Source of the DNA: an uncultured Isosphaeraceae bacterium
GTDB lineage: Bacteria > Planctomycetota > Phycisphaerae > Phycisphaerales > SM1A02
NCBI GenBank assembly: GCA_964598425.1
Contig: CAZRBV010000005.1
Coordinates: 1-64,000, forward strand
Reading direction: 5' to 3'
Length of the DNA stretch: 64,000 nt
Shown piece by piece: positions 1-19,991 of this stretch. The notes under the pieces were generated by a model. It was not told where the DNA came from. It searched no databases and was given only the letters and a program-made list of their open reading frames with translations. Numbering within the stretch: position 1 is the stretch's first letter; each line of letters starts with the position of its first letter. The position numbers were made by a program, and so were the translations under genes.

Positions 1-4
1 CTTG

Positions 5-54
5 CGACGCTGAACTCTCTCACTTAGCGTGGACCTAAGAACGGGGTAAGGTCA
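5..54. repeat. Terminal inverted repeat of an IS3-type element whose body lies upstream of the window (ends ...GGTCA at position 54)
   Basis: Positions 5-54 are the reverse complement of 10336-10385 with 3 mismatches in 50 nt. The outer terminus is TGACC..., typical of an IS3-family TG...CA end. The similarity stops at 54/55 and at 10335/10336. Confidence 0.5.
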
Positions 55-150
55 GTTACATGATGTTGGTATGATGCGTTGTCCCCATGGTGCATGTCTG
101 GTGCGCCGGATGGACAAGTCACGTTGAGACGAATCAGGAAAGGCAGAGAG

Positions 151-2607
151 ATGAACAAATCTCATGGTGCTGCGTGGCGAGGGCGATTCCTTGGTCGCAG
201 GAGTCTCATGATTATCGGGGGCAGTGCGATGCTTTGTGCTGGTGGCTGTAGCGTGTCACGCTGGGTAGCAATTTCAGCAAGCCAAGGTGGCGCTGCGGAC
301 GTTATGGTGGATGGCTCCCCCGTTGGATCGGCTGGGAGGAACCGACCTTCGATACAGAAGCTTGTGTGGGGTAGTGAGTCGGCGGAACATACGATCCGGG
401 TCACCTCCCGCGCTACCAACTACGGGTGGGCAGAAAAGACCTTGACGCAGGCTGACGCAAAGGGCTGGCGCGATGGGATTTCTCAAGAGACGCCGCACGA
501 GGAGTTCTTGGAGCCACTTCAGTTGAGGAGCACGGTCCCACTTGAAGTCACGGGGCATATTGAGGGTGGCAAAGACGACTCGCTGAAATGGAGAATTGAC
601 GGCGAGCCGAATCCAGGGGACGTGACCTTTACGCGGCGCCAGCAGGGTGATGGTAAACCGGCCTCTTGGAAAGCTCCCTCGCTCACTGTCATCAAGGAGT
701 ACTACAAGCCGAAATCGATCATAGTTAACTCGGATCAAGTGGACGAGGTCTGGTCCGAGAATGAGAATGACGTTGAACTCAAATACAACCAATCCGGTGT
801 GGATGTCTTTGTGGAGCTTAGTGGCATCAAGCGAAATGTGCCAATCGACGTGACGCCTCGATCCACCACGGTTACCGTGAAAGACGCCAAGGGGTCAAGA
901 CTTCAGAGGACTGATGGGCAAATCGAGTTGACGTGGACTGACGACGCCGAGACCGCCATGATTGAGTTGAGCAAGGAAGACTTCTTTTCAGAGAAGATAA
1001 AGCTCCACCGGTCACGGGCTCAGAATAGAAAATCAGAGCTTGAGGTCAAGCAGAGTCTCACCAAGCAATTCGAGCGGCCCACATTGAAGTTGAATATTGA
1101 GATGGCCGAGCGGATAGGGGCTTGGGTCGATTTGGTAGATATCAACACGAAGAAGTTGGAGAGCGATCGCATTACAGTTCTGTTGGATTCCAAGCCCCTG
1201 AGCGGGGATTGGGAGGTCAAAGAGGACGATCCAAATACTGTAGACGTAGATGAATCAGAGCTCGTCTTTACGACCGAACTTCTGTTTGAGCGAAAGGCAA
1301 GGCGCGATCGCAAGTATGGGGATCGAGCTTTGGAAATCCTTGTATCCGACCATTACCCATATCAGTCGGGCATCGGTGCCAAAAAAGCCACAGCATTGAA
1401 GCCGCATCGTGTCGAGACGCCGTGGCGCGGTGACATCTCATATTCAGCAGTGCTAGGCCCGAAGAACACGATCCCGGTCAATATTGGTTTCACGCCAGTT
1501 ACTGCGATGCAAACGATTGGTCACCATATCGATTGGTCCGGAGACGGCGCAGATGTCGTTTCCAAGGACTATTGGATCAACCTCCGGGACACGGAGTACC
1601 GGGATTGGAGTCTCATCTTGGCGTTGGGAGAAGGCAGGAGGGAAGATCTCATTGTTGGCCGAATGGCGATTCGCCCAAACCCGGATGGCTCTAGGGATGC
1701 AGCTACGGAAGTTGCATACAACTATCGCCCGCACGATACGAAAGGTGCCTCGCCAAGCGATTCTACGCGTGTGAGCGTGGGTGTTATCAAGGATGCCGCT
1801 GGTGAGTCGCCGGTGACTGCCGACTTCAGGAACAAGGAGGCGATAGGGCCATGGTACTCAAGTGACGGCGAGAAGATCTACGCAGTATCGCGGTCACATC
1901 CCACACCGAATTACGGGTACCAGCCCAAACATCGCAACGCAGATATGACTGCCGATGCCCTTAAGGCTGTTTTTCCACTATATGGTGCCCAGCCTCATGT
2001 CGCGGAGTTTAGTGAGGGTGGGAATGGGGGACGGGTGTGTACCGAGGTAAAATGGGGCCCTGCCAAGGTGTCGACGAACAAGGGGATTGCCTACTATGAG
2101 CCTGGCTCAGTTGGTAAAGTCGAGCTCGCTACTCAACGCGAGAATGGCAATCATTGGGGGCCTGCTTTGTGGGAGGACAGGGGCGGCAGCGGCTTTTGGG
2201 TCGCCTACAAAGCTCGCCATGGAGTGTACGGTGACATGTACACGATTTGGGTTGAGAATGATTTGGGGGAGAGCCATGAGATTACTGACGAGAAGCCGAT
2301 GCGATCTATCGACGGCATGTGTTGGGGCCCCAAGGGCGAATATCTGATTTACGCAGGCGTCGAGAAGAACGCGCCTCGAGACGGAGTGACTCAGGACTAT
2401 GACTGCAGCCTGTGGGCGGTCCGCTTGCGTACCGGCGAGCACCGTCAGCTGACTACGTGGACCGGTTACGAGGGCTTCCCCCAGATGAACGAAGAGGGAG
2501 ATAAAATCTACTTCATCTCGAATGCAACTGCTGTTGATGCAGCCGACTCTGATTCGCCCCCATGGACGCACTGGGGCATTTACCGCATTGATTGGGAGCC
2601 GGAATGA
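151..2607 (+). CDS. Large exported lipoprotein with a C-terminal TolB-like beta-propeller (WD40-like) region; function unknown
   Basis: ORF 79..2607. The likely true start is ATG 151 (MNKSHG...) after a GGAAAGG/AGAGAG purine-rich stretch. The N-terminus has a basic n-region, a hydrophobic core and a Cys lipobox-like motif (LMIIGGSAMLCAGGCS). The C-terminal third has repeated W/Y-rich TolB-like propeller motifs (GEYLIYAG...GDKIYFIS). Confidence 0.55.
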   Translation: MNKSHGAAWRGRFLGRRSLMIIGGSAMLCAGGCSVSRWVAISASQGGAADVMVDGSPVGSAGRNRPSIQKLVWGSESAEHTIRVTSRATNYGWAEKTLTQADAKGWRDGISQETPHEEFLEPLQLRSTVPLEVTGHIEGGKDDSLKWRIDGEPNPGDVTFTRRQQGDGKPASWKAPSLTVIKEYYKPKSIIVNSDQVDEVWSENENDVELKYNQSGVDVFVELSGIKRNVPIDVTPRSTTVTVKDAKGSRLQRTDGQIELTWTDDAETAMIELSKEDFFSEKIKLHRSRAQNRKSELEVKQSLTKQFERPTLKLNIEMAERIGAWVDLVDINTKKLESDRITVLLDSKPLSGDWEVKEDDPNTVDVDESELVFTTELLFERKARRDRKYGDRALEILVSDHYPYQSGIGAKKATALKPHRVETPWRGDISYSAVLGPKNTIPVNIGFTPVTAMQTIGHHIDWSGDGADVVSKDYWINLRDTEYRDWSLILALGEGRREDLIVGRMAIRPNPDGSRDAATEVAYNYRPHDTKGASPSDSTRVSVGVIKDAAGESPVTADFRNKEAIGPWYSSDGEKIYAVSRSHPTPNYGYQPKHRNADMTADALKAVFPLYGAQPHVAEFSEGGNGGRVCTEVKWGPAKVSTNKGIAYYEPGSVGKVELATQRENGNHWGPALWEDRGGSGFWVAYKARHGVYGDMYTIWVENDLGESHEITDEKPMRSIDGMCWGPKGEYLIYAGVEKNAPRDGVTQDYDCSLWAVRLRTGEHRQLTTWTGYEGFPQMNEEGDKIYFISNATAVDAADSDSPPWTHWGIYRIDWEPE

Positions 2608-2675
2608 CTCAGATGCCGATTCACCAGGACCAGGCACCCTGCCGATCGCTCGGACTGGCAGTCTCTCCGGGCCTG

Positions 2676-3581
2676 TTACGCATCAGTTCCGACAGGCGGA
2701 GCCCACTCGAAGAGTCGATCTAGCGTGAGTGTGCCCTGTTTATGCATGGCGGCGATCCAATGACGTGCGCTATAGGTCTGCTGACTCCGGTCGCCACCAA
2801 TGCGAATCCATGTTCCCGCGTTGTTATGGGGTTGGCCGATTTGTATTCGTACCCACGCATCGATGACATCGACGTTCTCGCCCGTGCAGGGTGGCGGCGA
2901 TGCGCAATCGGAGGCAGTGTCGTCATTGCATGGTGATTGCAAGACGAGAAGCAGCTGCGCGTATTCGGCAAACAAAGCAGTGGACGACGGATTGCCGGGC
3001 GCGGGCTCAGCGAGAAGCCACATGTGTGGCCGCGCAGCGTTGGACGCCGATGCGTCGTGCAGCATGACGTCCATGTCGCCCTGAAGTGTGCTGGCCGTCA
3101 TCCATGGCGCGTGCCGCGTAGCATCAGTTCGCGCGCCGATTGAGGCGGCAACAGGGCAGAAGACAACATCGAGTCCACTTGCCGCCGCTTGAATCAGTTG
3201 ATTGACAACATCATCCTGGTTGCTGTGTGTGGGAAAGCCGCGGCCGGAGATCCACATCGCCCACTGGCGAATGGCGGGGTCGTCAGCCTGGCTGGCTCGA
3301 AGCGCAGCGAGCGAATCGCTCAGAGAATCGGCGGGAGGGGGGCCGCCGCCCTGCGATGCCCGGTCGTGTTTGAGGAGCCGCAGAAGATCGTCTGCTTGCA
3401 GGTCCAAGGCCGTAGCCAGTTCGACAATCACATCCTCGTTGGTGAGCCGAGTGCCGGTTTCAATCTGTGAGACCCACTGCAGGGTCCGGCCGACCTCGCT
3501 GGCCAGACGGCTCTGGGTCCATCGAAGAACCTTTCGGCGGCGGCGGACCGCTGTGCCAAGTTGGGTTGTAGGCTTTCGCAT
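2676..3581 (-). CDS. XRE-family helix-turn-helix transcriptional regulator with a ~220-aa uncharacterised C-terminal domain
   Basis: N-terminal LRWTQSRLASEVGRTLQWVSQIETGTRLTNEDVIVELATALD is a canonical HTH_3/Cro-C1 motif. No peptidase HEXXH or other recognisable motif was found in the C-terminal 220 aa. Confidence 0.7.
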   Translation of the reverse strand: MRKPTTQLGTAVRRRRKVLRWTQSRLASEVGRTLQWVSQIETGTRLTNEDVIVELATALDLQADDLLRLLKHDRASQGGGPPPADSLSDSLAALRASQADDPAIRQWAMWISGRGFPTHSNQDDVVNQLIQAAASGLDVVFCPVAASIGARTDATRHAPWMTASTLQGDMDVMLHDASASNAARPHMWLLAEPAPGNPSSTALFAEYAQLLLVLQSPCNDDTASDCASPPPCTGENVDVIDAWVRIQIGQPHNNAGTWIRIGGDRSQQTYSARHWIAAMHKQGTLTLDRLFEWAPPVGTDA

Positions 3582-3906
3582 GGCTCGATTCTACTCTCGC
3601 CCAAAATTCAATGCAACATGTAGAATAATGTGCCAAGCCATGAGTATTGCTCGCCTGGCAAATGGAAAAACAGGAATTGTGCTTCAATGACAGGCTGTCT
3701 CTTGGGTCCATGGGCCGATTTCAACAAAATCAACTCAAATGACCGTGCAATATGTTGACATAGCGAGAATCGCTTGAGATAGTTCGCCAAGCTGACCGAA
3801 GGGGCGGGGAGTGTCTTGGCCTGGGGGCGACCCTGGGGCACCCCTCGTTCCCGGCCAGTCAACAGGACATGGGCCACGGTGAGGCCCAACGTGGAGACAC
3901 AATGCA

Positions 3907-4287
3907 ATGAAACACCTTCTTACCTCCATTTCAATTGCCGCGATGTCGCTGGTGGTTGGGTGCACCCGGTCGCCAGAGGTGATCGGTACAAGTCCCGCAC
4001 TGTGGCACCAGGCCACATCGGGGTACATCGACGGAATCGCAACAGGCGAGGCTGATGCCAGTGCCATGTCCGACGCGGCAGACACGCCGTCTCGCCGTAT
4101 GACGTCGAGCGATTTGCAGGCTGCAAATGATGCCCTCGTCGCAGCGAGGGGTGGCAACTGGTCTGAAATGAACTCCGCCATTACGGCCATTCATGACGCG
4201 GACATACGCAAGGCAACCGTCGACTCGCTCTCGGACTCAGGCTTTCCCGTCTCCGAGGCATTGGCCATGAAAGGAAGCCAGCGATGA
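3907..4287 (+). CDS. Small lipoprotein, function unknown
   Basis: Signal peptide with lipobox (SLVVGCTRS). Its stop overlaps the next start (ATGA at 4284-4287). Confidence 0.5.
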   Translation: MKHLLTSISIAAMSLVVGCTRSPEVIGTSPALWHQATSGYIDGIATGEADASAMSDAADTPSRRMTSSDLQAANDALVAARGGNWSEMNSAITAIHDADIRKATVDSLSDSGFPVSEALAMKGSQR

Positions 4288-5123
4288 CATTACTACAACG
4301 AACAATCCTGCCCTTGATCACGACCGCCTCAGCATTTGCAGCAGATGGTCCTGTGACCGACACCAGTCGGCTCCAGCTTCAGCGAGACATGCAGTTCAGC
4401 AGAACGCAAGCAGCGATGATTGAACAGGAGGCGGCGCCTATCAACGAGGCCGTGCGCCTGATCAACGAAGCAGTGTCGCAGCGACAGGCGGGGAACCTCC
4501 ACGCGGCAGCTGATCTGCAGGTTCAGGCCTATCAGCAATTTGAGGCTGCGTATCCATCGGTTCGATCGGGCCTCAACTCATTGGGGAAGAGCCTGCTTGG
4601 GATGTACTCGTCGAGCTACGGAGATCCAGATGTGGCGGCCGACAAACGGCGGCGGCTTCAATCACTCGCGCGTGCGAAGGCCTCAGAGCTTATGGCTGCG
4701 CGAGCAACCGGTGACGAGTTCCGCTCCAAAATGCTAGAGATGCAGGCGAGGACCCTCCGGCTTGAGCTTGAGGGTGTCAAGGCACTTGGTCGCGGCGAAG
4801 GTGGCATTGCAAGGATTCGCGGTGGTATCGAACGTGCTGTTCTGATCAACCAGAAGCGACTGCTTGAGCTTGAGTACGCGCGGCTCACGTTGGAAACGGT
4901 TTCTACGCTCGCGGGTATTGGTCGCGTTCCAGGCGTAGATCTGGACTTCAGTGAACTCGGCCCGGACCGGCTCTGGCAGGTGCTCGATGACACGATCGAC
5001 GATCTGGCACTCAGCGACGAGGAATTCGATTCGGACCCGCTGCTTGGCGGAAGTGCCAGTGTGATCGATGACGATTTCGAGAACTGGATTATGGCCAACA
5101 ACGAAACAGGAGTAGTGAAATGA
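4284..5123 (+). CDS. Secreted coiled-coil protein, function unknown
   Basis: N-terminal signal peptide (LPLITTASAFAADG), heptad-like Q/A/L/R-rich middle region and an acidic C-terminus. Start/stop coupled to both flanking genes. Confidence 0.5.
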   Translation: MTLLQRTILPLITTASAFAADGPVTDTSRLQLQRDMQFSRTQAAMIEQEAAPINEAVRLINEAVSQRQAGNLHAAADLQVQAYQQFEAAYPSVRSGLNSLGKSLLGMYSSSYGDPDVAADKRRRLQSLARAKASELMAARATGDEFRSKMLEMQARTLRLELEGVKALGRGEGGIARIRGGIERAVLINQKRLLELEYARLTLETVSTLAGIGRVPGVDLDFSELGPDRLWQVLDDTIDDLALSDEEFDSDPLLGGSASVIDDDFENWIMANNETGVVK

Positions 5124-5551
5124 AAGCGATCACAACAACGATTCTGATGCTGCTGCTCTCAGCGACAGCCGTTCACGGTCAGGTTGTGCCGCAAGACCAG
5201 GTTGAGGCCTATCAAGCGGCATCGGCTGAAGAAGCTCGGCTCTCTGACATCATCGTCGAGCGTCTCGCGGATCTGGCGAGTGCTGAGTCCAAGGGTTTCG
5301 AGAAACAGGCAGCGGACATACGTGAGCAGCTTCGCGTGCTGCGAATTCGACGAGATCAGGAAGTGTGGCAGGTAGAGCTGCTTGTTGGTCGACATGGCGA
5401 CGCCATTCGCCGCGAGGGAAATCAGCCAAAGATCCCGCCGACAGCCGATATCGAATCGAATTGGCGCGTCCGAAATGCCGCCAATGCTCGAGCGGCGCTT
5501 GCCCGCCGGCTGCGCTCTATTGAACACACATGGATCAAACAGACACACTGA
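5120..5551 (+). CDS. Small secreted protein, function unknown
   Basis: Signal peptide MKAITTTILMLLLSATAVHGQ. Its start overlaps the previous stop. Confidence 0.5.
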   Translation: MKAITTTILMLLLSATAVHGQVVPQDQVEAYQAASAEEARLSDIIVERLADLASAESKGFEKQAADIREQLRVLRIRRDQEVWQVELLVGRHGDAIRREGNQPKIPPTADIESNWRVRNAANARAALARRLRSIEHTWIKQTH

Positions 5552-5562
5552 GGAGCTGAACT

Positions 5563-6273
5563 ATGTTTCGAACGAAGACCTATCACAGTGTTCCGGCAGT
5601 AGCGTTGCTCGGGAGCATTCTTCTGACCAGTCCTGGATGCGATCAGCAGTCTCCGGAAGTGGACATTACGCGTGTCCCACTTCCACCGCCGGTGGCGATG
5701 GTGCCTGTTTCCAAGATCGAGCCGGTGAAGCAATCTGAACCCGAGGCGGCGCCGGAACTGTCCGCCGAACCAGAGCCGGATCCGGAGCCGATCGCAACGC
5801 CGACTCCGGCGCCAACCCCTTCCGAAACAGCTGTCAAGGACGGCGTTGACGGCGAGGTTTGGCAATGGGATATCAACGTGCACGATCTACGAAGCCTCAT
5901 TTCAGATGGCGACATTGCGCTGATCCGCGCCAAGGATGCGATGAGCCCCGAGTACAAACTGAAGCGATTCACCTATCTCAATGGCAGGTGGCGACCAGGC
6001 GGCGGTGATCTCTCGTCTTATTCTCTGGATTGCCGGATCCTCAACACCACCTGGGGCAGTTTGTACAACGACCTTCCCGGACTGAAGTCAAGCACGGACC
6101 GGTGGCTGATCGCCATGCCAAGCAGCTTCATGGCGATTGTTGGTGATCTTCGCGCATCCCACGGCGAAGAAGGTTTTGAAGTGCAACTCCATACCAGTCC
6201 AGGAGGACTGATCGCCTCCTTCACCGATTCCTCGGGCATGCCGATTCGCACTCCCATCACAATTGGAGGGTGA
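5563..6273 (+). CDS. Lipoprotein with a Pro/Glu-rich linker, function unknown
   Basis: Lipobox LLTSPGCDQQ. A PEPEPDPEPIATPTPAPTP linker is followed by a globular C-terminal domain. Confidence 0.5.
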   Translation: MFRTKTYHSVPAVALLGSILLTSPGCDQQSPEVDITRVPLPPPVAMVPVSKIEPVKQSEPEAAPELSAEPEPDPEPIATPTPAPTPSETAVKDGVDGEVWQWDINVHDLRSLISDGDIALIRAKDAMSPEYKLKRFTYLNGRWRPGGGDLSSYSLDCRILNTTWGSLYNDLPGLKSSTDRWLIAMPSSFMAIVGDLRASHGEEGFEVQLHTSPGGLIASFTDSSGMPIRTPITIGG

Positions 6274-6277
6274 TTCT

Positions 6278-6685
6278 ATGCATGACTTGATCAGTTTCAT
6301 TCAGCAGTATGCCCGGGGCACTGACATCATCATCGTCGTGCTCCAGGCGCTACTCTTAGCGATGGCAGTCGGCTGCCTCGCAGCCGGCGTGTGGACACGC
6401 ATCTCGGCCACTGTTGGTGGTCCAGCGGCCTGTCGACTGGCCGGGGCAGCCGACTTCATCGCGACGATCGGCCCACTCATTGGTGTTCTTGGAACGGTAT
6501 TGGGTGCGCGCGGCCTTGTGCCTGCGATGACCAACGGTGCTCTGGCAAACGCGAGCATGTCAATGGCGGAGGCTCTCGGTACGACAGCAGTCGGCATTAC
6601 AACCGCCGTCATTGCGCTTGGCGGCGCGGCCCTGCTTGTTCGCCGGGGCAAGCCCGCCGCCGAGGAGGTGCTGCGTGGGTCGTAA
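6278..6685 (+). CDS. MotA/TolQ/ExbB-family proton-channel protein (short form)
   Basis: Family-signature segment ATIGPLIGVLGTVLG ... MAEALGTTAVGITTAVIALGGAAL. GGAGGG sits 7 nt upstream of ATG 6278. The track ORF begins at 6263. Confidence 0.55.
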   Translation: MHDLISFIQQYARGTDIIIVVLQALLLAMAVGCLAAGVWTRISATVGGPAACRLAGAADFIATIGPLIGVLGTVLGARGLVPAMTNGALANASMSMAEALGTTAVGITTAVIALGGAALLVRRGKPAAEEVLRGS

Positions 6686-6695
6686 CGGCACGGTC

Positions 6696-7049
6696 ATGGC
6701 GGATCTGTTCTTTCTACTTTTCCTCGCGGCGTTTCTTAGTGTTGGAAGCGGCGGTACCTGGGAGGGGGAGCCACTGCGCAGGCCAGACATCGGCATTCGC
6801 AACGTTGCCATGGAAAGCGACGCACTGGATGTCCAAGTTGGCGAGAGTGCATGCATGGCACTTGGTCGCCAATGGGACTTCGATGCGATCCCTTCGCTGG
6901 TGACTGCGCTTGCATCCAGAGATTCCCAGACCATCGTTCTGCGAGGTCGCGACGAAGCCTCGTATGGCGCCTATCAGAAACTCGAGCAAGCCCTGCAAGC
7001 TCAGGGACTCACATATGTCCGCCTTGCGGGCGCAGGAGATGAACAATGA
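6696..7049 (+). CDS. ExbD/TolR-family biopolymer transport protein
   Basis: Single N-terminal TM (MADLFFLLFLAAFLSV) followed by a periplasmic domain ending TIVLRGRDEASYGAYQKLEQALQAQGLTYVRLA, the ExbD pattern. Internal ATG at 6696 within track ORF 6537..7049. Confidence 0.6.
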   Translation: MADLFFLLFLAAFLSVGSGGTWEGEPLRRPDIGIRNVAMESDALDVQVGESACMALGRQWDFDAIPSLVTALASRDSQTIVLRGRDEASYGAYQKLEQALQAQGLTYVRLAGAGDEQ

Positions 7050-7570
7050 AGGTACGGAACAACTTGACGTGGTGGCTGTTTGCAGGCGGAACGATTGGTG
7101 TACTTCTCACCGCAGCCATTGTGAGTGCGATGCCAGCATCGAGCGCTGCAGCGAAGCCTGAATCAGTAGGTCTGCGCGTCGAGAACCTCGGTATTTCCGA
7201 TGTTGCAACGCTGGCCGGGGGTCACTTTGTGATCGCTGATTCAACGATTACTTTCGAGCTGAGCGACGGCGTTGTGCCGGCGTGGCGCCAACTCGATGCT
7301 GGTGCCAGACCGGTTCGGAGTCCTGCGTTTGCAGTCAAAGAGATCGGCAATGAGACACCACCGCTTACCGTCTTGATGCGCGCCGACTCGCCAATTGCTG
7401 AGGAATGGAATGCCGCCGTAGATCGAATTCTTCGCCGCGCAGACGATGGGCTGATTGAACTTGTATTGATTCCAGATGGCGACGGAGCTGCCACGTGCTA
7501 CGGCTTGTTTGCTCCAGCCAATGGTGCTGCGGCGACCGTCATGCTTGCAAGTGTCGCCGATGGGATCTGA
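7046..7570 (+). CDS. Membrane-anchored periplasmic protein, possibly a second ExbD/TolR-like subunit
   Basis: Start overlaps the ExbD stop (ATGA). N-terminal TM (LTWWLFAGGTIGVLLTAAIV). C-terminal PLTVLMRADSPI...LIELVLIPDG loosely resembles ExbD. Confidence 0.35.
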   Translation: MKVRNNLTWWLFAGGTIGVLLTAAIVSAMPASSAAAKPESVGLRVENLGISDVATLAGGHFVIADSTITFELSDGVVPAWRQLDAGARPVRSPAFAVKEIGNETPPLTVLMRADSPIAEEWNAAVDRILRRADDGLIELVLIPDGDGAATCYGLFAPANGAAATVMLASVADGI

Positions 7571-7620
7571 AGACAGATGGCAACAGCGAGCGAGTGGAGC
7601 GCTGTTGCGGGAGCGGACTC

Positions 7621-7929
7621 ATGATTCGATACATCATCAAAGGAATCTTGGTGCTGATCACATTCGCTATCGGTCTCAGTGGAGCCTGGTGGATTTGGTG
7701 CGAACCGATCGGCGATCTTGCGTCGTCTGTCGTTCAAGGAGATCCATGTACCATCGTTGGCCGAGTTGTGGAGCGAGCGCCGCAGGCCTTTGCGGTCGCG
7801 GATCTCTCCGGCACCACGTGGGTGTTGACAAACGATCCGATCTCCCCTGGATCGTTTGTCGTCGTTCATGGCATCGTGGCTGGTAACGCGATCGTCACGG
7901 AGTCGTGGAGGCTTGCAGCGGGGTACTGA
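7621..7929 (+). CDS. Small membrane-anchored protein, function unknown
   Basis: Internal ATG (MIRYIIKGILVLITFAIGLSGAWW) gives a TM anchor plus a ~80-aa domain. The upstream part of the track ORF overlaps the previous gene. Confidence 0.35.
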   Translation: MIRYIIKGILVLITFAIGLSGAWWIWCEPIGDLASSVVQGDPCTIVGRVVERAPQAFAVADLSGTTWVLTNDPISPGSFVVVHGIVAGNAIVTESWRLAAGY

Positions 7930-8235
7930 TTGATATCACTACGGCATATGCACGTTCGTTCCTTTGGTTGAGAGCCGTGGCTCGGGCCCCCGACCAGTTT
8001 TGTCAGACGCTGCCCTCGCTCGGAGCGGATCGCTGCCGTGTGACGATATTGGCTGAATCATGAATTCGGCCACGGGGAGCCACCGCGAGGGCTGATAGAA
8101 CCGCTGCGGCACGACTTTGAGTTCTCGGCAGTCTGTCTAAGCCATGTCGCGGTTTGACATCAGGGGATGGAGTGGCGAGTAAACCGTTTGCATTGAATCA
8201 GCACGTATGGCGGTGCTCCAGCGAGGCAATATGCG

Positions 8236-10212
8236 ATGAGTGGACACTGGGATCGCATCCAAGATCTCTTTCACCGCGCCACAGCAATGGATGTTGATTC
8301 GAGGGAGTCGTTCCTGAAAGAGGAATGCGGTGACGACCATGTGGTGTTGTCAGAAGTCCTTTCGCTGCTGCACGCGGGTGAAGAAGTCGAAGATGCGGCG
8401 CCAACGACACCCATGCCTGTGCCACCATCCCCACGCGACTCAATGATTGGCACGAAGGTCGCGCGTTACACAATCAAGCGAGTCATCGGCAGCGGCGGCA
8501 TGGGAGTCGTATACGATTCTGTTCAAGAATCGCCCCGGCGTGCTGTGGCGATCAAGATGCTCAAAAGAGGCGTTGCTTCAAGAAGCGAGCTGCGGCGGTT
8601 TCAGCGTGAGTCACAGACGCTGGGCCGCCTTCGCTATGAGGGCATCGCGCATATCTACGAAGCGGGCACGTGGGATGATGGTGCAGGTAGTCAACCGTGG
8701 TTTGCGATGGAGTATCTGCCAGGTGCCAAGACGAACACACGGTATTGCAATGACAAGGTACTTGGAATTCGCGACCGTCTTGTTGTCTTCCAGCATGTGT
8801 GCGCGGCCGTACATCATGGTCACCAGAAGGGCGTCATCCATCGCGATCTCAAGCCGGACAACATCCTTGTCACATCCAACGGTGAGCCCAAGATCATCGA
8901 CTTCGGTGTCGCCCGCAGCACAGACAGTGATTTGGTTGTTACGACATTGCAAACTGATGTAGGGTCGTTGATAGGCACCCTTCAATACATGAGTCCGGAA
9001 CAATGCGACGCCGACCCCAACGATATCGATGCTCGAAGCGACGTCTATGCCCTCGGCGTCGTTCTCTATGAACTGCTTTGCGGGCAACCCCCGTACGATC
9101 TCAATAGCGCCGCAATTCACGAAGCGGTGAGGGTTATCAAGGAAGAAGATCCAACGAAGCCTTCAGCCATCAACAGGCGCCTCCGAGGCAGCCTTGAGAC
9201 GATCACACTCAAGGCCCTGGACAAAGATCGCGATCACCGATACCGAGACGCCTCGGCGCTTGAATCGGACATCGAATGCTGGCTCCACGGTCGTCCAATC
9301 TCGGCCAGGGGCCGTTCAGTGTGGGATCGTGGAAAGCGGCTCCTTATGCGGAATCCGGCGAAGGTTGCCACGGTGTTGGTGGTGTGTCTGCTATTGGTGG
9401 TGATCTGGCAGTTGAGAGCCGAAACGGATGCGACTGCATCCGCCTTGCGCGGTCCGCAAGCAGGCGATACGCAGGAAATCTCCCTTGGCGACGATCGGTT
9501 CATAGTGCTTGTGGGTGTCCCAAAAGGTGGGTATTGGATGGGCTCACCCGACACAGATGAAGATCGCCGCATGCCAGAGTGGCCGCCGCATCACGTGCTG
9601 TTCGATCGGGGGTTTTGGATCGGTCAAACCGAAGTGACTCAGGAGGCATATAACGCTGTGATGAGCGCGAATCCGAGCAGGTCCATCGGAGAGAGAGAGC
9701 TGAGCAATCCAGTCGAGCAGATTACGTGGGATGACGCTGTGGGATTCTGCGAGAAACTCACTTTGCAGCAGCGCGCCGCAGAGGCGATTGGGCCTGAGCA
9801 ACGGTTTCGCCTTCCAAGCGAGGCGGAGTGGGAGTATGCGTGCCGCGCTGGGAGTACGAGCTGGTATTGCTTTGGCGAATCTGAGAGTGATCTGGGTGAT
9901 TACGCGTGGCAAGACCACAATTCCGCGAACGCAACCTATCCGGTTGCCCAGAAACAACCCAACGCGTGGGGACTCTACGACATGCACGGCAATGTATTGG
10001 AGTGGTGTGAGGATCCGTGGCATACCGATTATGAACACTCACCGGCGGACGGCAGTGTGTGGGAGACTGGCGGGAATCCTGATAGCCGAGTTGTTCGCGG
10101 AGGCAGTTGGCGTACCGCTCCATGGGCCTGCCGATCTGCCTACCGCAGTGGGAATTGCCCTGACGGCCGGTACTTCGACGTCGGGTTCCGTGTCGTCCTG
10201 GACTCAAGGTAA
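8236..10212 (+). CDS. Ser/Thr protein kinase fused to a C-terminal formylglycine-generating-enzyme (FGE-sulfatase/SUMF1-like) domain
   Basis: Kinase motifs: GSGGMGVVY (Gly loop), AIKML (VAIK), HRDLKPDNILV, DFGVA, SPEQ. A TM segment (VATVLVVCLLLVVIW) follows. The C-terminus has FGE-family motifs (ITWDDAVGFCEKLT, GLYDMHGNVLEWCEDPWH, RVVRGGSW...AYRSG). Confidence 0.85.
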   Translation: MSGHWDRIQDLFHRATAMDVDSRESFLKEECGDDHVVLSEVLSLLHAGEEVEDAAPTTPMPVPPSPRDSMIGTKVARYTIKRVIGSGGMGVVYDSVQESPRRAVAIKMLKRGVASRSELRRFQRESQTLGRLRYEGIAHIYEAGTWDDGAGSQPWFAMEYLPGAKTNTRYCNDKVLGIRDRLVVFQHVCAAVHHGHQKGVIHRDLKPDNILVTSNGEPKIIDFGVARSTDSDLVVTTLQTDVGSLIGTLQYMSPEQCDADPNDIDARSDVYALGVVLYELLCGQPPYDLNSAAIHEAVRVIKEEDPTKPSAINRRLRGSLETITLKALDKDRDHRYRDASALESDIECWLHGRPISARGRSVWDRGKRLLMRNPAKVATVLVVCLLLVVIWQLRAETDATASALRGPQAGDTQEISLGDDRFIVLVGVPKGGYWMGSPDTDEDRRMPEWPPHHVLFDRGFWIGQTEVTQEAYNAVMSANPSRSIGERELSNPVEQITWDDAVGFCEKLTLQQRAAEAIGPEQRFRLPSEAEWEYACRAGSTSWYCFGESESDLGDYAWQDHNSANATYPVAQKQPNAWGLYDMHGNVLEWCEDPWHTDYEHSPADGSVWETGGNPDSRVVRGGSWRTAPWACRSAYRSGNCPDGRYFDVGFRVVLDSR

Positions 10213-10335
10213 CGTTATTGCGATTCGGTCTTCTACCTTGTGTCTACGAGAGCGGGCCAGGGTCCACTCTTGGAGGGAGAGAACGCGAACGTGTTTCGGT
10301 GCGCCGCTTGGCCTTGGGCTGGCATCTGAACGTGT

Positions 10336-10385
10336 TGACCTTACCCCGTTCTTAGGTCAACCCTAAGTGAGAGAGCTCAGCGTCG
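10336..10385. repeat. Terminal inverted repeat of an IS3-family element (starts TGACCTTACCCCG...)
   Basis: Reverse complement of positions 5-54 (47/50). Transposase orfB fragments begin immediately to its right. Confidence 0.5.
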
Positions 10386-10991
10386 TGCGCCCGTACCCAT
10401 TTCGAGTCCAACCCGTGAGCAAGGTTTCGAGCTCATTCGGTCGTAACCACCTGGCCGTTGGACGCAGGGAATTCCCCCGGGGGTAGAAGTCGGGGGCCAA
10501 ATACCCAGGAACGCTGTGGGGGCGATCCCCATTGCAGTGACGACGCCACATTGCACCGCGCATCTTCCATTGACAAGAACCAGGCTTCGTTCAAACACTC
10601 GGCGCGAAGGGGGGCCATTGAATGCCTCGATGAGGGGCGTTGTCCGTGGGCTTTCCGCGCCGAGAGGATTCCAGGTTGACGCTTCTTGAGTATGCCCATT
10701 GACCCAAGACCTTGCTGGTGAACTCTGTGCCGTTGTCGGCGCGAATGCGTGCGGGCAAACCACGACATGCTCGGATGTCCTCGAGCGTCCGCGCCACATT
10801 CCTTCCCGTCGCAACTGCACCCAGACGCGTGGCTAGCCCCAACTCACCCGAGTCAACGCGATCTCTCGAATGCGCCGCCGCAGTGCCGCTTGATCATCCG
10901 CTTGACTCTTGCAGCGAACGGTGGCGCGCGGCACACGAAACACGCGACACGCGCGTCGTTCACTGACGGCCCACATCACTTGGCTTTTTGA
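10377..10991 (-). pseudogene. IS3-family transposase OrfB (DDE integrase core) split over three reading frames; N-terminal catalytic part missing
   Basis: Frame 1 has RIRADNGTEFTSKVLGQWA...ESSRRGKPTDNAPHRG (DNGxEF...GKPxDNA). Frame 2 has ECLNEAWFLSMEDARCNVASSLQ. The tail has LIEAFNG. All are IS3 OrfB C-terminal signatures but in different frames. Confidence 0.7.
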
Positions 10992-11287
10992 CACCAACGA
11001 ACGCTTCCCCGTCGGTGTCGGCGCACTTTCCCCAAAGCGTCCTGGAGCATCGCCTTATCCAAACTCAGGTCCGCGACAAGACGCTTGAGCTTGCGATTCT
11101 CATCCTCCAGCAGCTTCAGCCGACGGACTTCCGCAATCCCAAGTCCCTCGAACTTCTTCTTCCACCAATAGAACCATAGCCCCTCGCTGATCTGCATCTT
11201 CCGACAGACCTCCTCCACCGGCGCGCCACTCTCCGCCTGCCGCAATGCATGCGTGATCTGCTCGTCCGCAGATCGCTTGTGCTTCAT
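10976..11287 (-). CDS. IS3-family transposase OrfA (HTH, IS3/IS911-type)
   Basis: MKHKRSADEQITHALRQAESGAPVEEVCRKMQISEGLWFYWWKKKFEGLGIAEVRRLKLLEDENRKLKRLVADLSLDKAMLQDAL is a typical IS3 OrfA with a leucine zipper. The 3' end runs into the orfB overlap region. Confidence 0.65.
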   Translation of the reverse strand: MKHKRSADEQITHALRQAESGAPVEEVCRKMQISEGLWFYWWKKKFEGLGIAEVRRLKLLEDENRKLKRLVADLSLDKAMLQDALGKVRRHRRGSVRWCQKAK

Positions 11288-11461
11288 GAGAGTCGTCTCC
11301 CGAACAGAGACCGAAATCGACTCGAATGCTTGCACTGCGTTTGGATCAGGATTTCGGTCTAAGCGCACGTTGACGCGTTCAAAGTACCTCTGGCTTTCAA
11401 ATGTGAATCACATGAGCGCGGCTCGAAAGGATCGCCGTGAGCCGCTTCGCACAGCTCGATC

Positions 11462-11797
11462 GTGGGCGATCAAGGACTCGGCCACGCTGCCGAGGTCCTA
11501 CGGGTCACGGGGCTGGTCCAGCGTGGTTGGCGAAAGTGGTTGGCATGGGCAAGCCGCAGCAGACTTGCGCTAATGGTCAAGGCGGCGCGAACGATACGCA
11601 AGCACCTCTGGGGCATCATCAGTGCCGTCGTGCTGCACACAACCAACGCCAGGGCAGAATCAATGAACAGCAAGATTCAACGGATCAAGGGCCGGGCATG
11701 CGGCTATCGAAACCGCACCAGATTTCGCCACGCGATCTTGTTTCATCTGGGCGGATTGGATCTCTATCCGGCTGCGGCGACCCACACGAAACACTGA
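11462..11797 (+). pseudogene. ISL3-family transposase, C-terminal fragment only
   Basis: ...KWLAWASRSRL...ISAVVLHTTNARAESMNSKIQRIKGRACGYRNRTRFRHAILFHLGGLDLYP matches the conserved ISL3 C-terminus (TNgxxEgxNnKIKxikRxayGfRn...GGLDL). No N-terminal portion is present. Confidence 0.6.
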
Positions 11798-11866
11798 AGC
11801 GCCAAAAAGTCTTGCGAGTTGTTCAGGGGGTTCGGGCGAGCGGCCGCGAGGCTCCAATTGCCGATG

Positions 11867-13228
11867 TCACCCGTTCTTGTTGGGCGAGGCAGCTTCGAGC
11901 ATCTCAAGTGACTGGACCCACTCCCCAACTTGCAGGCGGCGGGGTGGTGGACCGATGGCGTCGTCGATGAGCATTGGCGCGGCGAAGTTCGCAGGGATCA
12001 TGCGGCCGGCGAGATCAATCGAGGCGGTTCCAGTCAGCGGAAATGCGTGGAGCCGAGGCATGGCGGCGATGCCGAACTGCGGTGGATCGGCGGTTTGATG
12101 GTGCTTGCCGATTTCCGGCATCGCGACAACCGACAGAACCCATAAGTAGTACTCGTGATCGGCAAGCACGTCACTGCGGCGAATCAGGAGCCCACCAATC
12201 CCGGTACGACGCGACCATTCGCAGTTGCTGCGGAAGCTCGGGGGCGCGGCGTCCTTCCATGTATTCAGGGTGGCTTCAGGCACTTCGGCCATGGGCAACG
12301 GAAGCAGATGCAGTCGTTGGTTACCAGGCAACATGAGCTCTCGCATCCGTCCCAGCTTGATCTGCTGGGCAGTCAGAACGGTGCGTTTATCGAGGCGTGT
12401 GGGATTGATGGCCGAGAGATGCTGAAGCGCGAGGTGCTCGCTGGTGCGGACCAGCCGGCACTGCTTACCTGAGACCTTGCGAGACTCGTGATCGTTTGCT
12501 TCGCAGCGAGGCATTTTCCAGGTGACAACATCTGCTTCGATCCGATCTTTGCCAAGTGTCATGGAGTCGCCTGTCAGAACGAGTACCCGTATAGCCGCGG
12601 CAGGGTTTTCGATGGCGCACCTTTCAAGTGCGTCACCGGGCCGCGCAAGTAGCGGTGAGGGGCAATCTTCAACAGCACCCTCGTAGAAGAGGTCAATCGT
12701 TACGAATCGCGGTGATCGTTCCTGTGTGATGAGATCATTGACGGAGATGGTGTCGGGCAACTTGATCAGGTTGCTCAGGTCAATCTCGTTGATTGCACCC
12801 ATGCCAGCGCGATCGCCACCGTGTTCAATGAGGCGGCTGATGTTGACGTTGACGTCCTGGCGACTGTCCGTATAGGCCAGCACGGCAAGGGTCCATTCGC
12901 CACTAAACCGATGGCGCCCGTCATCGCCGGCATCGACGATGACTTCAATGTCCAGCCTGGCGTCCCCTGCACTACCGAGAGCGGCTTCGGTTGCTCGCGG
13001 GAGATGGAGCTCGATGGTCTGGGATCTGGTGCCGTTGGGGTGGAGGCGGACCTGCCTCCGTTCGGGCATATTGAGTACCCGGCTGTCAAGGCAGACCTCA
13101 ATGCCAAAGTGCTCATCTTCGCTGAGATTCTGGAATTGGAGATCCAAAACCGCGTGCAGCCCCTCCATGAGAAGGCGGCTGGTGTTGATGGCAACTCGAA
13201 TTGGTGAGTCAAAACCGGTCATCGGCAT
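11867..13228 (-). CDS. Hypothetical protein (453 aa), no recognisable domain
   Basis: Longest ORF in the interval, with only short competing ORFs on the other strand. Starts 17 nt beyond the ISL3 remnant and is divergent from the kinase gene at 13456. Confidence 0.45.
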   Translation of the reverse strand: MPMTGFDSPIRVAINTSRLLMEGLHAVLDLQFQNLSEDEHFGIEVCLDSRVLNMPERRQVRLHPNGTRSQTIELHLPRATEAALGSAGDARLDIEVIVDAGDDGRHRFSGEWTLAVLAYTDSRQDVNVNISRLIEHGGDRAGMGAINEIDLSNLIKLPDTISVNDLITQERSPRFVTIDLFYEGAVEDCPSPLLARPGDALERCAIENPAAAIRVLVLTGDSMTLGKDRIEADVVTWKMPRCEANDHESRKVSGKQCRLVRTSEHLALQHLSAINPTRLDKRTVLTAQQIKLGRMRELMLPGNQRLHLLPLPMAEVPEATLNTWKDAAPPSFRSNCEWSRRTGIGGLLIRRSDVLADHEYYLWVLSVVAMPEIGKHHQTADPPQFGIAAMPRLHAFPLTGTASIDLAGRMIPANFAAPMLIDDAIGPPPRRLQVGEWVQSLEMLEAASPNKNG

Positions 13229-13455
13229 TCCTGTTGGAGTCGGCGGATCGCCATAACTGGTTGAGGATACTGGATAGATGGCAAATCGAGTACAGAATCG
13301 TGCTCGGGTGCCGTGGCAGGCCGCATAGCACCCCGAACACGTAATGCGTGAGTCGATCGACGGCGGCGCACACTTTTTCTATGCGGAATCAATGTCTGGA
13401 TGTGTGAGAATTCACCGCTCGGCGCAAGGGCGCCCCTTGGTAGCATCCAGCGTTC

Positions 13456-15894: not shown

Positions 15895-15949
15895 CAGGCT
15901 CGTCGACTGCCGAAGCCGTGGGTTGAAACCACACCTGCATCCCATCCAG

Positions 15950-16110
15950 GAGAACAAAGTCTGCATTGTTTGGGTGTAGTGCCATCTTTTTTGCTGCTAC
16001 GCGGAGTCGATTATCGGACATGCAGTAATTTTGAAGACATTGCGGGAATAGTAAAGGAAAGAGAGGGCAAAACAGGGTAGCTATGGTATGATGGGGCCAG
16101 CGAAACGGAG
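15950..16110. promoter_or_regulatory. Locally AT-rich intergenic segment, candidate promoter/regulatory region for the 16119-19795 gene string
   Basis: About 160 nt that are much more AT-rich than the surroundings (ctgcattgtttgggtgtagtgccatcttttttgctg...gtaattttgaagacattgcgggaatagtaaaggaaagagag) lie directly upstream of the HTH gene at 16119. Confidence 0.25.
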
Positions 16111-16118
16111 TACCGCGC

Positions 16119-16487
16119 ATGGCACCGTTCCTCAATCTCAACCAGGTCTCCGAGATACTTGGCGTGGAATACAAGACCGTGTACCGGCTGGTTCGCGGTG
16201 GTGATTTGCCTGCGGCGAGGATTGGCCGGGTGTACCGGGTAAAACAGGACGACCTTGATGCCTACTTTGAGGCCAGCAAGCAGAGGCTGGCGGCCGAAAC
16301 ATCACGGGATATCACGCCGCTTGAGGGATTGCGGTGTTGTGTGAGCGGGAAACGGATAATCAGTGACCTCGACATAGGTGGCTACGCATCAGATACCGGC
16401 GAGCCTATTAGTCGGGCGGTCTGGGACAAGGGTGTTCGAGAGTCAGCCCGAAGTGGTGCGGGCAGAGATCGCGGAGGTGCACGATGA
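16119..16487 (+). CDS. Excisionase/MerR-like helix-turn-helix DNA-binding protein
   Basis: LNLNQVSEILGVEYKTVYRLVRGGDLPAARIGRVYRVKQDDLDAYF is the HTH_17 (excisionase-family) signature. Confidence 0.6.
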   Translation: MAPFLNLNQVSEILGVEYKTVYRLVRGGDLPAARIGRVYRVKQDDLDAYFEASKQRLAAETSRDITPLEGLRCCVSGKRIISDLDIGGYASDTGEPISRAVWDKGVRESARSGAGRDRGGAR

Positions 16488-17476
16488 GGATGTGGAATCT
16501 GGCTGTGCTGACAGTAATGGTGGTTGGTGCGGCGGGTGTTGCCGGGTGTAACTGCCGCTGCAAAACGACTGGCATCACGTGGGGAGTCGATGGTACATGT
16601 GAATGTGGGCAGTCCAGCTGCAAGTGCCCAAGCACTCGACCTCCCTCCGACCCCACGCGAAATACTGTTGAGAGACGAAATGGCAAGCAGTCAGCTCCGG
16701 AGCAGGAAAGACCTCAAGAGTCAGAGGGCAAGGGACCACCTACGCCAAGTCGCGTGGCCCATGCCCGATTGGATGAATGCCATATGGTTGTGGTGCCAGG
16801 TCCCGGCGTAGCGCATACGGGCAACGCCAGAGTGGCCCAATCGCATATGGAGAGTTACTTCAACACGCTGGGTATCCCGCTTCGCAACCCGAATGGCGTA
16901 AAGCTGGAGGATGCATCACGCTATGGCGTGAGAGCGATGGCCCAAAGCGAGGACGCCGATCTGGTCGCCGTTGTGCTGGTAGACGCAGTTGAGATCGACC
17001 GACTCGGCTACAGTGTGCGAATCCGGGCCGAAGTCAGATGCAAGATTTACGATGCCGAAGGGGACATATTCGTGGCTGCCAAGGCCGTTGACTATGCCCG
17101 CGACAGCGATGCGAGAGCAGCCACCGACGCTGCGGTCGCTGGTGCACTGGAGGCCCTTGGCGAATCCGTTGCAGATCAGATGATTGCTCGTGTTGGCAAA
17201 ACCGCGATCACGCGGAGGGTGACAATCAGTGGCCTTGACAACTTGCGGTCGCTGACTGAGTTGCAGCGGAGCCTTCGGGCGCAGCGGGGGATCAGCGAGG
17301 TTCGCACTGTGGCGTGGAGTGGTGGATCGGGCGTGGCGAAGATGACGGTGTATATGACGCCAGAGGTCGTTGATAACCTCGGAAGCTATATCGTGGGCGC
17401 ACCGGGACTCGGCATTGATATCACCTACGACGGCGATGGTGTGATTGTCGGACAAGGTGGGGAGGTGACGCAATGA
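16484..17476 (+). CDS. Lipoprotein, function unknown
   Basis: Signal peptide plus Cys cluster (VAGVAGCNCRC). The start overlaps the upstream stop and the stop overlaps the next start. Confidence 0.5.
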   Translation: MRMWNLAVLTVMVVGAAGVAGCNCRCKTTGITWGVDGTCECGQSSCKCPSTRPPSDPTRNTVERRNGKQSAPEQERPQESEGKGPPTPSRVAHARLDECHMVVVPGPGVAHTGNARVAQSHMESYFNTLGIPLRNPNGVKLEDASRYGVRAMAQSEDADLVAVVLVDAVEIDRLGYSVRIRAEVRCKIYDAEGDIFVAAKAVDYARDSDARAATDAAVAGALEALGESVADQMIARVGKTAITRRVTISGLDNLRSLTELQRSLRAQRGISEVRTVAWSGGSGVAKMTVYMTPEVVDNLGSYIVGAPGLGIDITYDGDGVIVGQGGEVTQ

Positions 17477-18201: not shown

Positions 18202-18223
18202 GAAGCAGCGAGGAGAAACACCT

Positions 18224-19795: not shown

Positions 19796-19991
19796 TCAGC
19801 CAACAAGCCGGAGAGTAGTGAAGTCCACTGTGCGGCATCGGGCTATCTCAGTAGCTTGCTTGCCTTGCGGTACGCTCAGCGGCTGCGACGTCAGGCGGTG
19901 GAGGCCGTGAGCACCTCAACACGATGCACTATTCTGAGACTACGGTGGCTCGGCTCCCGGGTTGTGTGCGTTGTGCCGTCGTCATTTCACT

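Follow-up and report, generated by a model that had tools for sequence, protein, structure and literature searches.

Two inverted ends of one IS3-family element, one of them a stump, around a 10.3-kb segment that is probably resident planctomycete DNA

Is the 10.3 kb of DNA that lies between two inverted IS ends, at one edge of a planctomycete contig stretch of 64,000 nucleotides (the whole stretch analysed, here called the window), a composite transposon, or does it merely lie between two insertions? The initial annotation had called positions 5–54 and 10336–10385 94% identical inverted repeats, and a repeat search bears this out with two inverted 50-nt arms, 47/50 identical (94% complementary) and 10,281 nt apart, an identity far above chance. 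The terminal 23-mer TGACCTTACCCCGTTCTTAGGTC occurs in the 64-kb window, with up to three mismatches allowed, only at 32–54 (minus strand) and 10336–10358 (plus strand), and none of 100 dinucleotide shuffles contained it. The repeat ends at 5/10385 because the right side continues there into the terminus of another IS: window positions 1–4 (CTTG) are still like the element that makes up the arms, and 10386 (TGCG...) is the terminus of a different one. The features of the locus are collected in Table 1.

Table 1. Features at the left end of the window, with the evidence for each
Feature	Position	Strand	Evidence or remarks
Left ISa copy, IRR end	1–54	+	Body runs off left edge; OrfB stop codon TAA inside repeat
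Intervening segment, 10,281 bp, 11 genes	55–10335		ORFs and gene calls on sibling contigs
Orphan 818-aa protein (cargo gene 1)	151–2607	+	
XRE/HTH_31 regulator	2676–3581	-	Pfam HTH_31, E = 8.8e-9
Four small proteins without family	3907–6273	+	ORFs
Short MotA/ExbB-like protein	6278–6685	+	Pfam MotA_ExbB, 31.8 bits (cut-off 22.9)
Weak ExbD-like protein	6675–7049	+	Pfam ExbD, 17.4 bits (cut-off 25.4), sub-threshold
Two proteins without family	7046–7570, 7621–7929	+	ORFs
Ser/Thr kinase fused to FGE-sulfatase domain	8236–10212	+	Pkinase, E = 1e-44; FGE-sulfatase, E = 1e-46
Second ISa copy, 50-bp IRR stump	10336–10385	-	Inverted relative to left copy; remaining ~1,219 bp absent
ISb, defective IS3-family element of a different lineage, 982 bp	10386–11367	-	Own IRR and IRL
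ISb orfA	10979–11290	-	Open, 103 aa
ISL3-family transposase gene, 3′ fragment	11462–11797	+	C-terminal ~75 residues only; 5′ part missing

Both arms are the same end (IRR) of one IS3-family element, which we call ISa and of which full copies were taken from three metagenome contigs (L013, L017, and L018). These copies are identical or nearly so, 1,269 bp long, and have the termini TGACCTT...AAGGTCA, the IRL (TGACCTTTCCCCCT...) and IRR (TGACCTTACCCCGT...) forming imperfect inverted repeats of the form 5′-TG...CA-3′. In all three, orfA is read in frame 0, has a slippery G GGA AAC at its end, and is followed by orfB in the -1 frame. The domains are HTH_Tnp_1 in orfA and rve/DDE in orfB, and the NCBIfam transpos_IS3 model, an IS3 equivalog with a cut-off of 160 bits, gives the fused OrfAB 288.5 bits. 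ISa thus has the -1 frameshifted OrfAB with a DDE (rve) domain and the length of about 1.0–1.75 kb by which the family is recognised, and it resembles IS911, IS2, IS3, and the IS407-type elements in length, reading frames, slippery heptamer, and TG...CA ends; unlike them, both ISa and the second element described below are unnamed. The reading of the two arms as TG... termini of an IS3-family element, with their inner ends toward the enclosed segment, is therefore upheld by the alignment to full-length ISa and by the NCBIfam matches. Transposition in this family is of the copy-out-paste-in type and passes through an IRL-IRR circle junction, and ISa would be expected to follow this mode as a member of the family.

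ISa is multi-copy, with at least 16 different flanks in metagenomes. Four matches to its ends come from contigs of two MAGs assigned to Planctomycetota, and three of these lie at a contig end; its hosts are apparently marine members of that phylum. On plasmids, the closest relatives of its OrfAB reach only 63–65% identity. The flanks of the full copies in L013, L017, and L018 carry no matching target duplication. L013 and L018 have one flank in common and differ in the other, which makes chimeric joins at the repeat probable in these metagenome contigs.

The left arm is 48/50 identical to the ISa consensus, and the body of its IS was claimed to lie beyond the left edge of the window. Two sibling contigs (L005 and L001) reach past that edge, and IS3 transposase sequence, the C-terminus of OrfB, is indeed present there directly upstream of position 1. 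L005 extends 137 nt beyond position 1, and its 192 nt are 94% identical, without gaps, to the 3′ end of the 1,269-bp ISa; the 57-aa OrfB C-terminus encoded by the left copy matches the NCBIfam IS3 transposase at profile positions 344–366. Of the left ISa, no less than 192 bp of the 3′ end thus remain, and the C-terminus of OrfB is intact in them. Contigs that carry the XRE or the ExbB-like gene, retrieved by exact-protein look-ups with 10-kb flanks, all end 27–192 nt inside the left IS, and every assembly breaks at window position 1 because the left ISa has further copies in the community.

The right arm is a different matter from what was first proposed. It had been read as the terminus of a decayed IS at 10336–11400, and this assignment fails, since the defective element next to it, which we call ISb, occupies only part of that interval and has different inverted repeats of its own. 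The arm matches the ISa IRR ends on contigs L006–L025 at 49/50 positions for most full-length ends and 48/50 in four, and no other ISa-like sequence occurs elsewhere in the 64-kb window; in particular the outer end (IRL) and the transposase of the right ISa are absent from it. Judged by its sequence, the right arm is an orphan ISa stump that has been cut at nucleotide 50 by an end of ISb.

The IRR of ISb begins at 10386 (TGCGCCCGTACCCATTTCG), its IRL finishes at 11367 (reverse complement TGCGCTTAGACCGAAATCC), and the two align with each other. Its relatives are 1,231 bp long with an OrfA of 88 aa, and one of them, L035, is intact and has the termini TGCGCGTGTACCC and TGCGCTTGTCCCC. Among the others, L032 and L033 are truncated and L028–L031 are internally deleted; L030 keeps the native IRR end and was used in alignments. 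When the window, L035, and L030 are aligned, homology starts and ends at 10386 and 11367 and the three flanks diverge beyond. Over aligned bases ISb is 65.8% identical to L035, the window copy having gaps in 269 alignment columns, and L035 positions 558–787 have no counterpart in it by tblastx. The orfB of ISb is broken in keeping with this, about 230–270 bp being missing and the frame disrupted. Both the orfA and the orfB fragments match NCBIfam IS3. Relatives of the OrfA protein number in the thousands, and the best of them are 68–80% identical (leaving aside the same element in a sibling contig); the ISb OrfA is ~50% identical to the OrfA of ISa over the C-terminal 46 residues by tblastx. 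ISb is thus an IS3-family element distinct from ISa. It has no target duplication, as the flanks GTCG and CGTT do not match.

A third element is represented on the far side of ISb by the 3′ end of an ISL3-family transposase gene, which matches the NCBIfam ISL3 transposase (E = 1.4e-17) at profile positions 295–370 of 370 and Pfam DDE_Tnp_ISL3 on sibling contigs. The gap of ~95–130 nt between the two (11368–11461) is degenerate or unassigned. Nested or clustered IS remnants, or "IS scrapyards", occur in bacterial chromosomes, and the pattern here is the same: an ISa stump, a defective ISb, and an ISL3 fragment lie within 1.5 kb, target duplications are missing, and nothing notable sets this locus apart from other such sites. 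Elsewhere the window is normal chromosomal DNA that carries housekeeping genes and lacks other IS. Scans for tRNAs and Rfam families across all 64 kb gave no matches, nor did a promoter/terminator scan of positions 1–400.

The locus is probably the product of two separate ISa insertions followed by nested IS damage on the right, the segment between them being resident chromosomal DNA. ISa would have inserted twice, in opposite orientations and 10.3 kb apart in the chromosome. The right copy would then have been destroyed, an ISb terminus becoming joined exactly after ISa nucleotide 50 with the loss of the other 1,219 bp. Given that ISb lacks a target duplication and has a truncated ISL3 gene on its far side, this joint would have been made by deletion or by ISb-ISb recombination, that is, through an ISb insertion with an ISb-adjacent deletion or through recombination between two ISb copies. 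ISb would have decayed afterwards, and the 10.3 kb would merely happen to sit between the two insertions. We infer this order of events, and likewise the independence of the two ISa insertions, which is not seen directly because the left flank of the left ISa is contained in no assembly; on the other side, the outer flank of the right ISa copy has been deleted.

What lies between the arms bears on this reading. Of the labels given earlier to the enclosed genes, XRE, ExbB, and kinase-FGE have Pfam support, "TolB-like" has none, and for ExbD a match is present, as proposed, but falls below the threshold. A PADLOC scan returned only generic kinase and HTH matches, to the PD-T4-6 and mad1/mad6 models, and a defence system was not accepted on such generic matches. 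Every contig that carries the segment genes is 99.9–100% identical to the window, in one genomic context and one near-clonal population, probably of a marine planctomycete, and no second context was found in any collection searched. Cargo gene 1 had no match in a scan of GTDB species genomes, which also yielded no relative with an empty site, and neither it nor the ExbB-like protein has homologs outside this population among 5.8 billion proteins.

In composition the segment is much like its surroundings. GC3 is 0.616 within it, 0.637 over the adjoining 8 kb, and 0.671 beyond that; its RSCU correlates with that of the rest at r = 0.90, compared with 0.87 for the neighboring outside block; and a tetranucleotide dip reaches ~20 kb, past the bracket. 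GC is lowest at 1–3 kb (0.54–0.55). The GC and codon usage of 55–10335 therefore do not set the cargo apart from the DNA outside the bracket, although the orphan status of gene 1 and the ExbB-like gene, together with the low GC at 1–3 kb, would also fit imported DNA.

The initial annotation had proposed an IS-flanked composite transposon. Such a unit has two flanking IS that are the same or compatible, intact outer ends on both sides, and either more than one context or relatives from which it is absent. Here ISb differs from ISa and has different ends, the right ISa copy is a 50-bp stump whose IRL and transposase are gone from the window, the context is single with 99.9–100% identity throughout, and the composition is ordinary. 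Since both outer ends of a composite transposon must be usable and the right one has been lost here, the 10.3 kb is not a working unit of this kind, and on these grounds the segment cannot be expected to move as a unit today.

Whether it once did so is a separate question. Two complete inverted ISa copies might have moved the 10.3-kb block in, with ISb breaking the right copy later, and we regard this as unlikely. The IS-flanked compound geometry, with both inner ends (IRR) toward the cargo, speaks for it, as do the orphan cargo genes and GC and GC3 values slightly below those of the 20–64 kb core. However, the block has no second context in any collection, and the shift in composition runs on past the right arm to ~20 kb. 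With inverted copies, moreover, both outer ends would be IRL, yet the family, from what is known of it, uses an IRL-IRR circle junction. That an ISa compound transposon once brought an orphan module of envelope genes (XRE regulator, four small secreted proteins, short ExbB/ExbD-like pair, and kinase-FGE fusion) into a marine planctomycete and was then frozen by ISb is correspondingly doubtful.

Comparison with known composite elements is informative here. Tn10/IS10 and Tn5/IS50 occur in many contexts and have two complete inverted IS, whose outer ends are intact and whose transposases are of the cut-and-paste IS4 family. The likeness lies in two inverted copies of one IS with their inner ends toward passenger genes; the difference is that the right copy here is a 50-bp inner-end stump with no outer end or transposase and one known context. 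IS3-family composites do exist, an example being the 210-kb IS2-like element/megacircle of B. thailandensis, which has two intact IS and 5-bp target repeats and for which a circle of the left IS plus passenger DNA was detected experimentally, showing that a copy-out-paste-in IS can mobilize intervening DNA (PMC6350997). That element shares with our locus passenger DNA between IS3-family elements, but the right IS is destroyed here and the locus is known from sequence alone; it has, moreover, been likened to the direct-repeat IS26 units (PMC6350997). The closest analog of a decayed transposon at this locus is provided by the decayed derivatives of Tn6330 (ISApl1-mcr-1-ISApl1), in which flanking IS were lost, remnants were left, and the passenger segment became fixed (PMC5821093). 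Tn6330 is nevertheless an IS30-family transposon with directly repeated copies and a passenger of known function, occurs on many replicons, and has been shown experimentally to mobilize (PMC5821093), and the direct orientation of its copies, like the likening to IS26 units, argues against transposition of a block between inverted copies.

Inversion of the segment by homologous recombination between the inverted ISa copies, while the right one was still whole, was proposed along with the transposon, and we consider it improbable. Inverted ISa copies at a distance of 10.3 kb provide a suitable substrate, and the absence of a target duplication around ISb, with truncated IS on both its flanks, points to secondary rearrangements at this spot; ISb itself, however, is the simpler cause of these. 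An inversion should leave orientation polymorphism or reversed strand composition. All contigs that cross the right junction have one orientation, no alternative junction was recovered, and GC skew has the same positive sign in the segment and in the flanking 13–20 kb, which is weak evidence at the 10-kb scale. Because the sequence to the left of the left IS is in no assembly, a relic transposon and an old inversion both retain some small probability.

Much less probable than either is that the right arm is the native terminus of a single decayed IS3 element at 10336–11400, a diverged or hybrid version of the left IS. It is true that the arm directly adjoins the decayed IS and shares its orientation, and there is weak similarity (8/13) over the 13 nt beyond the arm. 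But the relatives of the decayed IS end in TGCGC..., exactly at window position 10386, with flanks unrelated to the 50-nt arm, its own IRL and IRR match each other, and identity to ISa falls at the boundary from 98% (49/50 for the arm) to ~55–60% in the 10386–11400 interior. The idea of a diverged or hybrid copy was dropped after the relatives of the right element had been aligned.

An assembly artefact, a chimeric join or collapsed repeat that made the arms, is hardly credible: the window does begin within a repeat, 54 nt from its end, that interrupts every assembly, and some contigs around ISa look chimeric (for example L013 vs. L018 and L010 vs. L015), but both arms recur in independent metagenome assemblies at 99.9–100% identity to the window and are therefore no artefact, the right arm and both its junctions being present base for base in assemblies from several samples and pipelines (L001, L002, and L003) and the left junction in L005 as well.

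The locus, read as two ISa insertions followed by IS damage, is an ordinary one, and its value lies mainly in annotation, as it adds two unnamed IS3-family elements and an ISL3 remnant and accounts for the breaks in the assemblies of this population at window position 1. It also gives a caution: a long inverted repeat found beside the remains of a transposase gene is not necessarily part of the same element, and here only an alignment of intact relatives revealed where the 50-bp stump of one IS gives way to the genuine terminus of the other. Were the segment a relic transposon after all, it would represent a rare capture of passenger genes by an IS3-family element outside the Proteobacteria.

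The inverted repeat around the first 10.3 kb of the window was borne out by a repeat search, its two arms (see table) being 94% complementary over 50 nt. Within the window these arms are the only sites of the terminal 23-mer TGACCTTACCCCGTTCTTAGGTC when up to three mismatches are permitted, and none of 100 shuffles contains it. The initial annotation, which read the structure as resembling a composite transposon, is partly right: the geometry of arms bracketing a segment and the IS on the left are correct, and the identity given to the right arm and the implied mobility are not.

Features of the left part of the window
Feature	Position	Strand	Remark
Left arm	5-54		end of ISa
Enclosed segment (cargo)	55-10335		about 10.3 kb
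Gene 1	151-2607		818 aa
MotA/ExbB-like gene	6278-6685		135 aa
Right arm	10336-10385		end of ISa
ISb	10386-11367		982 bp
ISb orfA	10979-11290	minus	103 aa
Left junction of ISb	10382-10389		flank GTCG
Right junction of ISb	11364-11371		flank CGTT
Kinase and HTH_17 pair	13456-16487		Ser/Thr kinase with FG-GAP repeats, then 122-aa protein

Exact-protein look-ups with the cargo genes recovered at least 13 contigs from metagenomes, all matching the window at 99.9-100% identity, and each of these sibling contigs terminates 27-192 nt within the left repeat. Two of them, L005 and L001, extend farthest past window position 1, and their DNA directly upstream of it encodes ...VLIERWRVHYNTVRPHSSLGYRPP...LSHLGWT*, the C-terminal end of an OrfB of the IS3 family; its stop codon falls within the inverted repeat. 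The IS3-like transposase predicted to lie off the left edge is therefore present, at least as this C-terminal part, and the 192 nt at that edge align without gaps, at 94% identity, to an element that we call ISa. All assemblies stop in this repeat, and the window begins 54 nt inside it, so that position 1 probably marks where a contig of the source assembly ends.

Full ISa copies, found in contigs L013, L017, and L018, are 1,269 bp long with left and right terminal inverted repeats (IRL and IRR) TGACCTTTCCCCCTAAATCC and TGACCTTACCCCGTTCTTAGG. Their orfA (92 aa) lies in frame 0 and orfB in frame -1, with the heptamer G GGA AAC just upstream of the orfA stop. On the NCBIfam profile "IS3 family transposase" (cut-off 160 bits) the conceptual OrfAB reaches 288.5 bits, and the best of its relatives on plasmids share 63-65% identity with it. 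The ISa 23-mer was located at 17 loci in metagenome contigs, among which at least 16 distinct outside flanks are represented, and a scan of one genome per GTDB species gave four matches, all within two Planctomycetota MAGs (an Isosphaeraceae bacterium and Phycisphaerales ETNP7_MAG_7). We also note that L013 and L018 have a common flank at IRL and differing flanks at IRR, so at least one of them is chimeric or rearranged, which obscures any target duplication of ISa in the metagenome contigs. In L010 (142, minus), L015 (94, plus), and L019 (1249, minus), the first two with an outside flank in common, IRR gives way to unrelated DNA after only 26-72 nt; such contigs hold additional ISa stumps or were joined chimerically at the repeat during assembly. 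Near position 1024 (minus strand) L020 carries an ISa variant that, judged by eye, agrees with the consensus at about 90% across its first ~700 nt; TTGACCT, which repeats the variant's own first bases, directly precedes it, and its homology to the consensus stops ~700-750 nt from the IRR end.

The right arm had been taken for the terminus of the decayed IS beside it, and this proved wrong. When the left IS end is aligned to 10336-10600 in reverse complement, the two are nearly identical across 50 nt and then fall to ~55-60% identity with indels. The neighboring element, ISb, encodes an OrfA with thousands of relatives, the best of which are 68-80% identical (a 99% copy in a sibling contig excluded) and nearly all 88 aa long; it is ~50% identical to ISa OrfA across the C-terminal 46 residues (tblastx). 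An intact relative, L035/L036, is 1,231 bp long with termini TGCGCGTGTACCCGAATCC and TGCGCTTGTCCCCTTATCGG. In a three-way alignment of the window element, L035, and a second relative, L030, homology starts at TGCGCTTAGACCGAAATCC (window 11367, minus strand) and stops at ...GGGTACGGGCGCA, which is plus-strand TGCGCCCGTACCC from 10386; outside these points the three sequences are unrelated, which sets the limits of ISb. It carries its own matching inverted repeats, and the 50 nt of the right arm fall outside it, agreeing with the ISa IRR at 49 of 50 positions in most full-length ISa ends examined and at 48 in four. The limits of the inverted repeat are thereby explained, as window 1-4 is still ISa and the ISb terminus begins at 10386. 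ISa nucleotides 51-63 (CAAGCCCATTCCC) and the ISb terminus are alike at 8 of 13 positions, which could reflect ISb targeting of end-like sequences, or chance.

ISb itself is decayed. Across aligned bases it shares 65.8% identity with L035, with 269 gap columns; by tblastx it lacks a counterpart of L035 558-787 (the N-terminal part of the catalytic region), and its leftover orfB pieces occupy different frames. Several ISb-type copies among L028-L033, from unrelated metagenomes, are also internally deleted, with orfA kept and most of orfB gone, and short derivatives reduced to orfA may be frequent in this lineage. No target duplication was found around ISb in its two flanks. To its right, beyond ~95-130 nt that are unassigned, an ISL3 transposase is represented by its final ~75 codons (profile positions 295-370 of 370), with the 5′ part absent. 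Truncated IS elements adjoin ISb on both sides, and the break in the ISa stump coincides exactly with the ISb end. Such a junction is characteristic of a joint made by a transposase that then lost one side, through either an ISb-adjacent deletion or recombination of one ISb copy with another. Taken as a whole, the right-hand cluster is an unremarkable nest of IS remnants.

The simplest history would have four steps: ISa inserts at 54/55 and, oppositely oriented, at 10335/10336; the right copy acquires an ISb end at its nucleotide 50; the remainder of that copy is lost with part of the neighboring ISL3; and ISb subsequently decays. With neither outer end nor transposase in the right ISa, the block cannot transpose now. 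Independent insertion of the two copies is favored because ISa is multi-copy, the cargo has a single known context, and composition is continuous across the right arm. IS3-family transposition runs via an IRL-IRR circle junction, whereas inverted copies put IRL at both outer ends, which again favors independent insertion. Joint arrival as a compound transposon, or inversion of the segment between the two copies since, is less favored. The outer flanks are unassembled on the left and deleted on the right, and of the marks of a compound transposon we found neither two usable IS copies, nor intact outer ends, nor more than one genomic context among the recovered contigs. Tn6330, a composite element of a circle-forming IS, has directly repeated copies (PMC5821093), and the Burkholderia thailandensis IS2-like composite element is likened by its authors to direct-repeat IS26 units (PMC6350997). 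Our locus resembles the "demise"-type decayed compound transposon of Tn6330 in outline only.

Among the cargo genes, Pfam supports the XRE regulator (HTH_31), a short MotA/ExbB-like protein, and the kinase-FGE fusion, as initially labeled; the ExbD match exists and is below threshold (17.4 bits, cut-off 25.4). Gene 1, called TolB-like, and the four small proteins have no family match. Neither gene 1 nor the MotA/ExbB-like gene has a homolog beyond this near-clonal population among 5.8 billion proteins. In sibling contig L002 (= L041) a single-base indel, due to strain variation or to a mistake in assembly, breaks gene 1 into ORFs of 613 and 190 aa. Outside the segment, the kinase and HTH_17 pair matches the PADLOC MADS defense models mad6 (E = 4e-58) and mad1 (E = 6e-10), as does the enclosed kinase; this is probably generic kinase and HTH domain similarity.

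The GC and codon check for a distinct block found a shift that the IS arms do not bound. GC3 rises from 0.616 within the segment to 0.637 in the six genes next to it (11.8-20 kb) and 0.671 at 20-64 kb; RSCU values correlate with those of the core at 0.90 for the segment and 0.87 for the outside neighbors; the tetranucleotide dip (lower correlation with the rest of the window) extends to ~20 kb; and GC skew is positive within the segment and beyond it alike. Any peculiarity thus belongs to the first ~20 kb. The remaining 44 kb holds housekeeping genes (GcvP, a SerA-like dehydrogenase, DHQ synthase, FolE2, and ABC transporter parts) and no further IS. Both ISa and ISb add new elements to the IS3 family. 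The XRE, small-protein, ExbB/ExbD-like, and kinase-FGE genes may form a lineage-specific module of unassigned function, and the contig edge may be where a flexible region, wider than the IS bracket, starts (1-20000).
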